NCBI RefSeq assembly: GCF_003334405.1
Contig: NZ_QOWM01000061.1
DNA length: 604 bases
Reading direction: 5' to 3' (one strand)
DNA from: Escherichia coli
GTDB lineage: Bacteria; Pseudomonadota; Gammaproteobacteria; Enterobacterales; Enterobacteriaceae
In this document: piece by piece, positions 2 to 603 of the stretch
How positions within the stretch are numbered: position 1 is the first letter of the stretch
Layout of the letters: each line of letters opens with the position of its first letter
Translations under genes and position numbers: made by a program
Notes under the pieces: generated by a model
Told to the model about the DNA's origin: nothing
The model's input: only the letters and a program-made list of their open reading frames with translations
Databases searched by the model: none

Positions 2-77
2 TGGTGGGTCGTGCAGGATTCGAACCTGCGACCAATTGATTAAAAGTCAACTGCTCTACCAACTGAGCTAACGACCC
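2..77 (-). tRNA. lysZ: tRNA-Lys, anticodon UUU, 76 nt with encoded 3' CCA
   Basis: Identical to the other two tRNA-Lys copies and separated from the copy at 224-299 by a 146-nt spacer. The paralog name is inferred from position. The window ends 1 nt past the 3' CCA, so the downstream context is not visible. Confidence 0.96.
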
Positions 78-125
78 ATACGGGTGTTACCTGAAAGATT
101 TTTACTCGGGGCCAATCTTTAAGAT

Positions 126-142
126 TGGTGGGTCGTGCAGGA
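126..142 (-). other. Orphan 17-nt copy of the tRNA-Lys 3' terminus (T-stem 3' half, acceptor 3' half, ACCA)
   Basis: The plus-strand string tggtgggtcgtgcagga is identical to the first 17 nt of each tRNA-Lys at 2, 224 and 528. Similarity to the tRNA stops abruptly after this 17-mer, where the sequence continues tgactcgc instead of ttcgaacc. Confidence 0.85.
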
Positions 143-168
143 TGACTCGCTTCGCTCGCCCTACGGGC

Positions 169-184
169 CGTTGCTGGCGCAACG
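169..184 (-). other. Predicted short GC-rich hairpin (6-bp stem, 4-nt loop)
   Basis: Plus strand cgttgc (169-174), loop tggc (175-178), gcaacg (179-184) form a perfect inverted repeat. Confidence 0.35.
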
Positions 185-197
185 TTATCCTTCACGC

Positions 198-220
198 TTA
201 ACATCTGAGTTTGATGTTAA
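198..220 (-). other. Predicted RNA hairpin in the tRNA-Lys 3' trailer (8-bp stem, 7-nt loop)
   Basis: Plus strand ttaacatc (198-205), loop tgagttt (206-212), gatgttaa (213-220) form a perfect inverted repeat. In transcript sense this is CCA-GUU-UUAACAUC-AAACUCA-GAUGUUAA, starting 3 nt after the CCA. No U-tract follows, so it is not an intrinsic terminator. Confidence 0.5.
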
Positions 221-223
221 AAC

Positions 224-299
224 TGGTGGGTCGTGCAGGATTCGAACCTGCGACCAATTGATTAAAAGTCAACTGCTCTACCAACTGAGCTAACGACCC
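224..299 (-). tRNA. lysY: tRNA-Lys, anticodon UUU, 76 nt with encoded 3' CCA
   Basis: Identical base for base to the tRNA-Lys copies at 528-603 and 2-77. Its 5' end lies 3 nt downstream (in transcript sense) of the tRNA-Val 3' CCA. The paralog name is inferred from position. Confidence 0.97.
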
Positions 300-302
300 G
301 AG

Positions 303-378
303 TGGTGGGTGATGACGGGATCGAACCGCCGACCCCCTCCTTGTAAGGGAGGTGCTCTCCCAGCTGAGCTAATCACCC
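303..378 (-). tRNA. valZ: tRNA-Val, anticodon UAC, 76 nt with encoded 3' CCA
   Basis: Reverse complement reads GGGTGATTAGCTCAGCTGGGAGAGCACCTCCCTTACAAGGAGGGGGTCGGCGGTTCGATCCCGTCATCACCCACCA, with anticodon stem CCTCC/GGAGG, loop CUUACAA and T-loop TTCGAT. It matches E. coli-type tRNA-Val(UAC) as I recall it. The paralog name is inferred from the flanking gaps of 149 nt and 3 nt. Confidence 0.96.
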
Positions 379-429
379 GATACTGCGCTGGATACTACAA
401 ACTACTTCCACCGAACCCACCGTCATTAG

Positions 430-446
430 TGGTGGGTCGTGCAGGA
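430..446 (-). other. Orphan 17-nt copy of the tRNA-Lys 3' terminus (T-stem 3' half, acceptor 3' half, ACCA)
   Basis: Exact 17-mer tggtgggtcgtgcagga, followed by the same non-tRNA sequence as at 143 onward. Confidence 0.85.
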
Positions 447-472
447 TGACTCGCTTCGCTCGCCCTACGGGC

Positions 473-488
473 CGTTGCTGACGCAACG
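473..488 (-). other. Predicted short GC-rich hairpin (6-bp stem, 4-nt loop)
   Basis: Same stem as 169-184 (cgttgc / gcaacg) with loop tgac; the single difference from copy A is in the loop (a481 versus g177). Confidence 0.35.
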
Positions 489-501
489 TTATCCTACACG
501 C

Positions 502-524
502 TTAACATCTGTCTTCGATGTTAA
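502..524 (-). other. Predicted RNA hairpin in the tRNA-Lys 3' trailer (8-bp stem, 7-nt loop)
   Basis: Same stem as 198-220 (ttaacatc / gatgttaa), but the loop is tgtcttc and differs at 3 of 7 positions. The stem is unchanged. Confidence 0.5.
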
Positions 525-527
525 AAC

Positions 528-603
528 TGGTGGGTCGTGCAGGATTCGAACCTGCGACCAATTGATTAAAAGTCAACTGCTCTACCAACTGAGCTAACGA
601 CCC
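528..603 (-). tRNA. lysW: tRNA-Lys, anticodon UUU, 76 nt with encoded 3' CCA
   Basis: Reverse complement reads GGGTCGTTAGCTCAGTTGGTAGAGCAGTTGACTTTTAATCAATTGGTCGCAGGTTCGAATCCTGCACGACCCACCA, which matches enterobacterial tRNA-Lys(UUU) as I recall it, with a 7-bp acceptor stem, anticodon loop CUUUUAA and T-loop TTCGAAT. The paralog name is inferred from the 149-nt gap to the downstream tRNA-Val and is less certain than the tRNA call. Confidence 0.97.

Follow-up and report, generated by a model that had tools for sequence, protein, structure and literature searches.

The 604 nucleotides of Escherichia coli DNA analyzed here (the window) almost certainly represent the lysW-valZ-lysY-lysZ segment of a K-12-type lysT operon, an ordinary transcribed and processed tRNA locus that carries repeats of the RtT family, probably as passengers, in its two long spacers. 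The tRNA locus is already known and has a housekeeping role. Of the six tRNA-Lys genes in E. coli K-12, five belong to the lysT operon, and the segment illustrates in textbook fashion that multi-copy tRNA genes can be identical in sequence; the tRNA locus itself matters only as annotation. The repeat units in the spacers are dispensable and polymorphic site by site among E. coli strains.

Gene content, placement and processing

ARAGORN called exactly four tRNA genes in the window, all on the minus strand, each 76 nt long and with an encoded CCA. The anticodons at position 34 read ttt, ttt, tac and ttt, identifying three tRNA-Lys(UUU) genes and one tRNA-Val(UAC) gene. All four gave full-length matches to the Rfam tRNA model RF00005 (79.2 bits for every Lys gene, 65.9 bits for Val; gathering score 29, E-values 8e-18 to 4e-14). 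The four tRNA genes at these coordinates are not a chance pattern. A previous sequence-only reading had proposed four minus-strand 76-nt genes with these anticodons, and ARAGORN and Rfam returned the same coordinates, ARAGORN agreeing on boundaries and anticodons for every gene. The gaps of 149, 3 and 146 nt given by that reading were reproduced on recomputation (527-379, 302-300 and 223-78), and the three Lys copies it had described as identical were 100% identical on comparison, the Val gene being 70% identical to them. Within the whole K-12 lysT operon the five Lys genes are identical to one another, as are both Val genes.

The reverse complement of the window matched E. coli K-12 MG1655 (NC_000913.3 780842-781445) exactly, at 604/604 positions covering genes and spacers. 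The names lysW-valZ-lysY-lysZ, previously offered as probable, are those annotated at this place in NC_000913.3 and hold for the K-12-type architecture. Its exact agreement with this K-12 segment makes the window an ordinary housekeeping locus, and nothing in the analysis speaks against this identification. Megablast was run on the E. coli collection, and among the matches listed the best-ranked 25 records, including MG1655, showed 100% identity over 100% of the window; since numerous strains share the sequence without a single difference, 604 nt are too few to tell which strain it comes from.

The lysT operon consists of seven genes; in all matching records that were examined, cpoB and nadA flank it. 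The window itself holds no flanking genes, and lysT-valT, lysQ, the promoter and the terminator of the operon lie outside it. The sequence-only reading had given a lysT-valT gap of about 135 nt, which is correct in NC_000913.3. With gaps of 149, 3 and 146 nt, the window covers the operon's middle part rather than its 5' end.

Table 1. Coordinates of the genes, spacers and repeat units in the window
Feature	Length (nt)	Position	Strand	Basis
lysW, tRNA-Lys(UUU)	76	528..603	-	ARAGORN; Rfam 79.2 bits; NC_000913.3 780843-780918 annotated lysW
lysW-valZ spacer (lysW 3' trailer and valZ 5' leader)	149	379..527	-	sequence, K-12 comparison
RtT-family unit in lysW-valZ spacer	98	430..527	-	Rfam RF00391 54.9 bits, E = 5.7e-10
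Second copy of tRNA-Lys 3' end, ATCCTGCACGACCCACCA (tRNA positions 59-76)	18	430..447	-	read from sequence; part of direct repeat D2
valZ, tRNA-Val(UAC)	76	303..378	-	ARAGORN; Rfam 65.9 bits; NC_000913.3 781068-781143 annotated valZ
valZ-lysY spacer, CTC in transcribed sense	3	300..302	-	K-12 comparison
lysY, tRNA-Lys(UUU)	76	224..299	-	ARAGORN; Rfam 79.2 bits; NC_000913.3 781147-781222 annotated lysY
lysY-lysZ spacer	146	78..223	-	sequence, K-12 comparison
RtT-family unit in lysY-lysZ spacer	98	126..223	-	Rfam RF00391 54.4 bits, E = 7.4e-10; direct repeat D2
Second copy of tRNA-Lys 3' end, ATCCTGCACGACCCACCA	18	126..143	-	read from sequence
lysZ, tRNA-Lys(UUU)	76	2..77	-	ARAGORN; Rfam 79.2 bits; NC_000913.3 781369-781444 annotated lysZ

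Gene identity and location were thus observed directly in the window; processing and essentiality are taken from the literature, namely from PMC4176162 and PMC11480407, where the locus previously described as a known housekeeping locus is indeed covered in both respects. According to PMC4176162, the lysT operon yields a single polycistronic transcript whose tRNAs are separated in the 3'->5' direction by RNase P. RNase E is reported there to cut the long spacers, including the lysW-valZ spacer, as a backup only, when RNase P is inactive; the valZ-lysY junction is separated by RNase P only. The 3' ends are finished by RNase T or RNase PH, and a C following the CCA makes maturation of the Val 3' end dependent on RNase PH. 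The lysT transcription unit could be deleted only with a complementing plasmid, and the operon is essential in K-12 (PMC11480407).

Applied to the window, lysW, valZ, lysY and lysZ would be transcribed from right to left in window coordinates, within one polycistronic transcript of ~1.1 kb that would start outside the window, at the lysT promoter. RNase P would remove the terminator first and then cut at each mature 5' end in the 3'->5' direction. The 3' trailers, 2 to 150 nt long, would be shortened by RNase II and PNPase, and final 3' trimming would fall to RNase T for Lys and to RNase PH for Val, the CCA already being encoded in the genes. The expected products are the cell's only tRNA-Lys species and the major tRNA-Val1 species. 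A simple promoter scan found no consensus promoter anywhere in the operon region, and all terminator-like sites in the operon scan lay on the non-transcribed strand, several of them inside RtT core hairpins.

RtT-family units in the two long spacers

The 149- and 146-nt spacers each owe their length to a 98-nt RtT-family repeat with a duplicate tRNA-Lys 3' end. Both units exceeded the gathering score of RF00391 (45) and gave the same scores in the K-12 locus. The unit at 430..527 begins directly after the lysW CCA and consists of a 5' hairpin, the core AACGTTGCGTCAGCAACGGCCCGTAGGGCGAG and an 18-nt pseudo-3' end; like it, the second unit closes with the 3'-terminal nucleotides of the upstream tRNA including CCA. 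The two units are paralogous, as they lie in a 175-nt repeat that includes the preceding tRNA-Lys and is 97% identical between the copies. The sequence-only reading had overlooked the repeat and the second tRNA-Lys 3' end in each of the long spacers.

The complete RtT architecture comprises the core hairpins and, 5' of them, a T-arm-like domain closed by an outer helix. In the alignment to RF00391 the 5' half of the model ran onto the body of the tRNA-Lys gene, with an insertion of 43-44 nt and non-canonical outer pairs, and the pairing partner of the pseudo-3' end, CGTG(T/A)AGGAT, fell within that insertion. Homology of the spacer units to RtT thus appears convincing for the 3' ~70 nt only.

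We also considered readings of the window other than tRNA genes and repeats. All open reading frames are at most 54 aa long and overlap tRNA genes or repeats. Two TTG-start frames on the minus strand (102-182 and 373-486) encode 'RQQRPVGR', akin to 'RRQRPEGR' of Tpr. We rejected a coding reading, the Tpr-like peptide match being nucleotide homology of the RtT core and not evidence for a gene. Features on the plus strand were rejected as well: the Rfam matches to Plastid-ycf2 and YrlA are antisense-tRNA look-alikes that score far under their gathering scores.

Distribution and nature of the units

Comparison among E. coli strains revealed that the units vary. In strain 4/1-1 these seven tRNA genes are all present, separated by spacers of 35, 2, 51, 3, 48 and 33 nt without any unit. 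O157 and strain 4/1-1 both lacked exactly the segment 430..527 at the corresponding site, and the segment 126..223 was missing at its site in strain 4/1-1, where the spacer measures 48 nt. At the lysT locus, spacers shorter than those of K-12, or a smaller number of genes, occur in many E. coli strains. A spacer census of 5,426 E. coli genomes joined neighbouring repeat pieces into one place, so that its coverage counts of 3778 and 1042 are not readable as counts of architectures. In an evenly spaced sample, at least 13 of 60 records had a single full-length piece and 8 more, reported as joined pieces, were apparently K-12-like; as a rough estimate, about one third of the sampled E. coli have the K-12-like architecture. 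Since other strains possess seven tRNA genes without units, the units are not needed for a complete seven-gene operon, and we infer that the RtT-type repeats ride along in the operon transcript as passengers.

The same core was found behind tRNA-Lys, Tyr, Arg(ACG) and Pro in many genera, where an exact copy of the host 3' end closes the unit. In other Enterobacterales it also occurs behind other tRNAs and 5S rRNA, usually ending in the 3' end of the host gene. Among 69 tRNA-adjoining units in other genomes, 55 carried an exact copy of the 3' end of the host tRNA, and the copied ends showed a median of 0 mismatches to the cognate host 3' end versus 5-9 to non-cognate ends. In three cases behind tRNA-Arg(CCG) the copy was partial, the first 10 nt matching in two units and 17/18 in the third. 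Variant tRNA 3' ends were reproduced in the unit's copy in L027, L031 and L107, and the 5S-rRNA-linked form duplicates the end of 5S together with part of its trailer; a dispersed form occurs in Alcanivorax. Spacers of Lys-Val operons have a bimodal length distribution because an RtT-type unit is either absent (~22-66 nt) or present (~125-170 nt). The 5' arm showed 2-3 non-pairs per 12 with the cognate host versus ~4 for most non-cognate hosts, with overlap for the Pro probe, which may faintly hint at host-specific complementarity. Together, this distribution suggests that RtT-family members generally accompany the 3' ends of stable-RNA genes. We found no description of RtT-type units in lysT spacers, or of their polymorphism, in the open-access literature; RtT has dropped out of the CoCoNuT preprint in its current version, and a mobilome preprint cites rttR only for its elevated coverage and not for excision.

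We wondered whether the units might be small non-autonomous elements, mobile or spread by recombination, whose insertion point is the T-loop or 3' end of a stable-RNA gene. Insertion would then regenerate the 3' end of the host gene, much as an att-site duplication does. At the five sites compared, occupied and empty versions differed by precisely the stretch that the 18-nt direct repeat delimits, and the occurrence of one core behind several kinds of tRNA, each time with the exact 3' end of its own host, points in the same direction, as do the mirrored variant ends and the copied 5S end and trailer. However, no integrase or transposase adjoins the units, the operon being flanked by cpoB and nadA, and precise loss by slippage between the 18-nt repeats combined with gene conversion between identical tRNA genes accounts for the polymorphism with no need of mobility. 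Both gain and loss are compatible with the observed changes. We therefore regard insertion as a tentative possibility. The broader proposal, that the 98-nt units belong to a widespread non-autonomous family that targets 3' ends behind tRNA-Lys, Tyr, Arg and Pro and 5S rRNA, is mobile or driven by conversion, is gained and lost site by site within E. coli and is not merely a tyrT-specific small RNA, is equally speculative, and we advance it with reservation.

A functional RNA is a still more doubtful explanation. Each unit might be released as a discrete stable RNA, a mimic of a tRNA minihelix ending in ...ACCCACCA, like the rtT RNA of tyrT, and such an RNA could influence tRNA processing or the stringent response. 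Besides the scores above the Rfam gathering score, the predicted structure argues for this idea. The lysW-valZ spacer folds at -57 kcal/mol (z = -4.4 versus shuffled sequence) and contains a predicted helix of 10 bp formed by CGUGUAGGAU and the pseudo-3' end AUCCUGCACG. The corresponding strands of the tyrT repeats are GGGGAAGGAT and ATCCTTCCCC; compared with these, two pairs of the helix are changed on both sides. Covariation support has been published for the RtT family (PMC7657543), and RtT RNAs have been detected in Klebsiella transcriptomes (PMC4147364). Yet in the lysY-lysZ unit an A·G mismatch interrupts this helix and its spacer folds more weakly (-43 kcal/mol, z = -2.9), the RF00391 score comes partly from running over the tRNA-Lys body with the long insertion, and the host-specific arm complementarity is only modest in the wider sample. 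The accessible part of the Northern study of the lysT operon (PMC4176162) describes no stable RNA derived from a spacer, and the strains with all seven tRNA genes but no unit imply that any function is dispensable. We thus consider a released functional RNA unlikely.

Finally, the chance that the window stems from another Lys/Val cluster to which these gene names do not apply is negligible: the valU operon has identical tRNA-Lys and tRNA-Val genes, a few plasmid records match tRNA-Val/tRNA-Lys (13-15 places on plasmids), a phage tRNA set or a lysT-like operon of Citrobacter or Enterobacter might be imagined, and other Enterobacteriaceae have similar Lys-Val-Lys operons with RtT-type spacers, but in the window the spacers as well as the genes equal K-12 over all 604 nt, the outgroup operons have other spacers (137, 125, 143, 162 nt and others), and for the loci examined spacer lengths, gene order and the exact K-12 match refute such an origin.

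Relation to known systems

The window agrees with the K-12 lysT operon in all nucleotides, gene order, anticodons and spacer lengths, and differs from it only in lacking both ends of the operon. The valU-valX-valY-lysV operon shares its tRNA-Val(UAC) and tRNA-Lys(UUU) sequences with the window; its Val-Lys junction is likewise very short, and an RtT-type element follows the last Lys gene. In contrast to the window, it is arranged Val-Val-Val-Lys, with short spacers (44, 46 and 4 nt).

The closest relatives of the units themselves are the RtT RNA and 178-bp repeats of tyrT-tyrV (RF00391; rttR, tpr). Both have the core AACGTTGC..GCAACGGCCCGAAGGGCGAG..CGAAGCGA in common, and in both the final 18 nt of the unit repeat the 3' end of the upstream tRNA, CCA included, and pair with an upstream strand. 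The window units are shorter (98 nt versus about 130-178 nt), lack the T-arm-like 5' part (GGGGAAGGATGAGAAGCTTCGACCAAGGTTCGA) of the tyrT repeats and score 54-55 bits against RF00391, whereas the tyrT repeats score 133-138 bits. They carry the end of tRNA-Lys instead of tRNA-Tyr and are known from sequence alone, not as released RNA.

Integrative elements that target tRNA genes leave duplicated tRNA 3' ends (attL/attR). By analogy, the units would resemble such duplications in that foreign sequence and then a second copy reaching from the T-loop to the CCA come after an intact tRNA gene, and in that their presence varies among strains. Unlike an integrative element, the intervening segment of the window units is only ~80 nt long and lacks an integrase gene, and it constitutes a conserved structured RNA motif in its own right.

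Identity and expression of the tRNA operon segment

All 5,426 complete E. coli genomes gave a match to the window in a megablast search, and the best-ranked 25 records listed, among them K-12 MG1655, C600 and many clinical isolates, matched with 100% identity and 100% coverage. A direct string search placed the reverse-complemented window, without a single mismatch, at 780842-781445 of NC_000913.3, across lysW to lysZ and spacers included, and the annotation of that record bears out the names lysW-valZ-lysY-lysZ proposed by a sequence-only reading. The K-12 operon, flanked by cpoB and nadA, reads lysT-135-valT-2-lysW-149-valZ-3-lysY-146-lysZ-132-lysQ (spacers in nt). 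As the lysT-valT gap is 135 nt, the reading was right to give it about that size and to distinguish it from the 149/146-nt spacers. The only other Lys/Val cluster of K-12, valU-valX-valY-lysV, was excluded as the source of the window because its order differs and its spacers are short.

ARAGORN called exactly four tRNA genes, all on the minus strand, and the Rfam tRNA model (gathering score 29) matched each of them full-length. The repeat finder puts identity at 100% among the three Lys genes and at 70% between these and the Val gene; the gaps measure 149, 3 and 146 nt. Boundaries, anticodons, gap sizes and the identity of the Lys copies were all as predicted, every number of the earlier observation being correct. 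The tRNA genes and their operon are textbook material, and their interpretation as a known housekeeping locus rather than a novel system holds.

Features of the window and of its counterpart in K-12
Feature	Window position	Strand	NC_000913.3	Evidence
lysW, tRNA-Lys(ttt)	603..528	minus	780843-780918	ARAGORN; Rfam tRNA, 79.2 bits; record annotation
valZ, tRNA-Val(tac)	378..303	minus	781068-781143	ARAGORN; Rfam tRNA, 65.9 bits; record annotation
lysY, tRNA-Lys(ttt)	299..224	minus	781147-781222	ARAGORN; Rfam tRNA, 79.2 bits; record annotation
lysZ, tRNA-Lys(ttt)	77..2	minus	781369-781444	ARAGORN; Rfam tRNA, 79.2 bits; record annotation
RF00391 match, lysW-valZ	430-596	minus		54.9 bits
RF00391 match, lysY-lysZ	126-292	minus		54.4 bits
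98-nt RtT-type unit, start of lysW-valZ spacer	527..430	minus		direct reading
98-nt RtT-type unit, start of lysY-lysZ spacer	223..126	minus		direct reading
Second tRNA-Lys 3'-end copies, 18 nt	447..430 and 143..126	minus		direct reading
Short TTG-start ORFs across the RtT core	102-182 and 373-486	minus

The window has neither a promoter nor a terminator of its own; a simple consensus scan across the whole operon region gave no promoter, an outcome that reflects the limits of the scan only. Agrawal, Mohanty and Kushner (PMC4176162) report that all seven tRNAs lie on one transcript of ~1,100 nt from the lysT promoter, and that RNase P takes off the terminator before cutting at the mature 5' ends one after another, in 3'->5' order. 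The same study describes pre-tRNA 3' trailers of 2-150 nt that are shortened by RNase II and PNPase, with final trimming by RNase T for the Lys and RNase PH for the Val tRNAs. It reports RNase E cleavage in the long spacers, lysW-valZ and lysY-lysZ among them, solely in the absence of RNase P activity, and a valZ/lysY CUC junction that RNase E cannot separate. The lysT transcription unit, which accounts for five of the six genes with a UUU anticodon, was deletable only with a complementing plasmid in a systematic deletion study (PMC11480407).

Plasmid-borne places matching the window number 13-15 in all. On one small replicon, the 50,485-bp E. coli record NZ_CP098226.1 (H65), adjacent tRNA-Val and tRNA-Lys matches lie at 20408-20599 with 98.3% identity; a phage-plasmid and a captured fragment are both possible explanations.

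RtT-type units in the long spacers

A permissive Rfam search matched RtT RNA (RF00391; gathering score 45) at both long spacers of the window and, in the K-12 locus, in all four long spacers and after lysQ. The hit boundaries overstate the element because they reach ~69 nt into the tRNA-Lys genes, where the T-arm-like 5' domain of the model is aligned on the genuine T-arm of the tRNA and 43-44 nt are treated as an insertion. With the 5' half of the model placed over the tRNA gene in this way, convincing homology is limited to ~70 nt on the 3' side of the model.

Each unit opens with the base that follows the tRNA-Lys CCA and closes with a duplicate of the 18 nt at the tRNA-Lys 3' end (ATCCTGCACGACCCACCA). 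The two units are close paralogues, the 175-nt repeat to which they belong, preceding tRNA-Lys included, being 97% identical. The sequence-only reading had the Lys-Val-Lys-Lys segment and its 149/146-nt gaps right but overlooked these units, which account for the ~100 nt that these spacers have over those of other strains. The lysW-valZ spacer is predicted to fold (-57 kcal/mol, z = -4.4) with the second tRNA-Lys end, a pseudo-3' end, paired to the upstream CGUGUAGGAU through a helix of 10 bp; in the lysY-lysZ copy a single A·G mismatch falls in the predicted helix, and the fold is less distinctive (z = -2.9).

Unit occupancy among E. coli strains

We compared the lysT operons of four E. coli strains.

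Architectures of the lysT operon
Strain (locus)	tRNA genes	Spacers (nt)	Units
K-12 (L001 2555-3845)	7	135, 2, 149, 3, 146, 132	all five, including after lysQ
RM9387 (L007)	7	135, 2, 149, 3, 146, 33	four; only lysZ-lysQ missing
O157 FDAARGOS_293 (L005)	6	35, 2, 51, 3, 146	one, lysY-lysZ only
4/1-1 (L006)	7	35, 2, 51, 3, 48, 33	zero; single terminator
GTDB representative		35, 2, 51, 3, 146, 132

Occupancy varies independently at five sites of the operon (these four loci and L113, a further compared locus), and the number of tRNA genes varies as well, with six in O157. In every case strains differ by exactly the stretch delimited by the 18-nt direct repeat of the tRNA-Lys 3' end, and the remaining spacer is conserved; for example, K-12 CTAATGACGGTGGG... 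matches O157 CTAATTACGGTGGG... The unit after lysQ (L001 3654-3845, outside the window) has an identical copy of the terminator segment ATGTAAAAAAGCGCCCTAAAGGCGCTTTTTTGCTAT on either side, whereas strains lacking the unit have a single copy, so that the direct repeat at this site is 54 nt, tRNA end plus terminator. These data show that the RtT-type units of the lysT operon are dispensable and polymorphic. Given the differing layouts, that of the GTDB representative included, the 149+146 arrangement of the window is one of several E. coli architectures. An evenly spaced sample, read roughly, suggests that it occurs in ~1/3 of complete genomes, an estimate since the search tool joins repeat pieces and precludes a true census.

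Related units in other genomes and the tyrT repeats

Lys-Val operons of Citrobacter, Enterobacter, Phytobacter, Pluralibacter and Erwinia likewise have bimodal spacers: the short ones (22-66 nt) are without the core, and the long ones (125-170 nt) carry it, with an exact tRNA 3'-end copy in all but one. Scanning a collection of species-representative genomes with the core pattern GCRACGRCCCGWAGGGYGA gave at least 120 loci, and hosts were assigned with ARAGORN and a script for L010-L127. Among the loci listed, in many Enterobacterales, a tRNA gene is followed by the core at a distance of 50-125 nt (~200-300 nt in the case of later units in tandem arrays), and the hosts comprise at least 29 Lys(UUU), 24 Tyr(GUA), 8 Arg(ACG), 3 Pro(UGG) and 3 Arg(CCG) units. 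For Lys (L010, L074), Tyr (L012, L014), Arg(ACG) (L018, L021) and Pro (L066, L081, L082) hosts, the last 18 nt of the host tRNA recur at the end of the listed units, 23-41 nt past the start of the core, with a median of 0 mismatches to the cognate end versus 5-9 to non-cognate ends. Where the tRNA 3' end is a variant (L027, L031, L107), the copy carries the same variant. The three Arg(CCG) cases listed have a partial copy, matching over the first 10 nt in two and at 17/18 in the third. The 5' arm shows complementarity to the 3' end of its particular host, with a statistically modest separation from non-cognate arms. Rfam RtT scores were strong for forms linked to Pro and Arg(CCG) (82-101 bits); the Arg(ACG) form tested and the 5S-linked forms gave no RtT call at the gathering score.

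In the 5S-linked forms, found in Superficieibacter, Pseudocitrobacter and Siccibacter (loci of this type: L015 40-240, L088 181-522, L070, L071 and L118), the 5S rRNA gene is followed by ~100-150 nt with the core, a second 5S 3' end with part of the trailer, and tRNA-Thr or tRNA-Asp. The longest stretch common to the 5S end and its second copy is 19 nt in Pseudocitrobacter (L088; AACTGCCAGGCATCAAATT) and 9 nt in Budvicia (L118), whose second copy has diverged. Separately, Alcanivorax sp. 24 (L033-L047) contains a 74-nt repeat, both dispersed and in tandem, with the motif AACGTTGCnnnnGCGACGGCCCGAAGGGTGA. The repeat is not tRNA-adjacent, has no Rfam match and is a candidate REP-like relative of the RtT core.

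The observations on the units are compatible with three accounts: an element, mobile or spread by conversion, that restores the 3' end of its host gene; an ancient structured RNA that gene conversion keeps matched to its host; and repeated loss via slippage between direct repeats. RtT itself is curated in Rfam; published covariation supports the family (PMC7657543), and it has been detected in transcriptomes (PMC4147364). We found no open-access description of the lysT-spacer units, their strain polymorphism or the 5S-linked form, and since the older tyrT/lysT literature lay outside our search we claim no novelty for them.

The long/short spacer rule of the lysT operon also applies to a serV-argV-type Arg(ACG) operon of E. 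coli SCPM-O-B-8794 (L114), where a 197-nt spacer holds the core and a tRNA-Arg 3'-end copy and the sister spacers measure 62-64 nt. The TTG-start ORFs of the window, reading MRQQRPVGRAKR..., share the frame of 'RRQRPEGR' in the annotated 29-aa 'protamine-like protein' Tpr of the tyrT repeats; the likeness stems from homology of the RtT-core DNA and does not speak for coding. The window units and the classic tyrT repeats have in common the core AACGTTGC-NNNN-GCAACGGCCCG(A/T)AGGGCGAG-CGAAGCGAGTC, whereas the tyrT repeats end in the tRNA-Tyr 3' end (ATCCTTCCCCCACCACCA) and the window units in that of tRNA-Lys.
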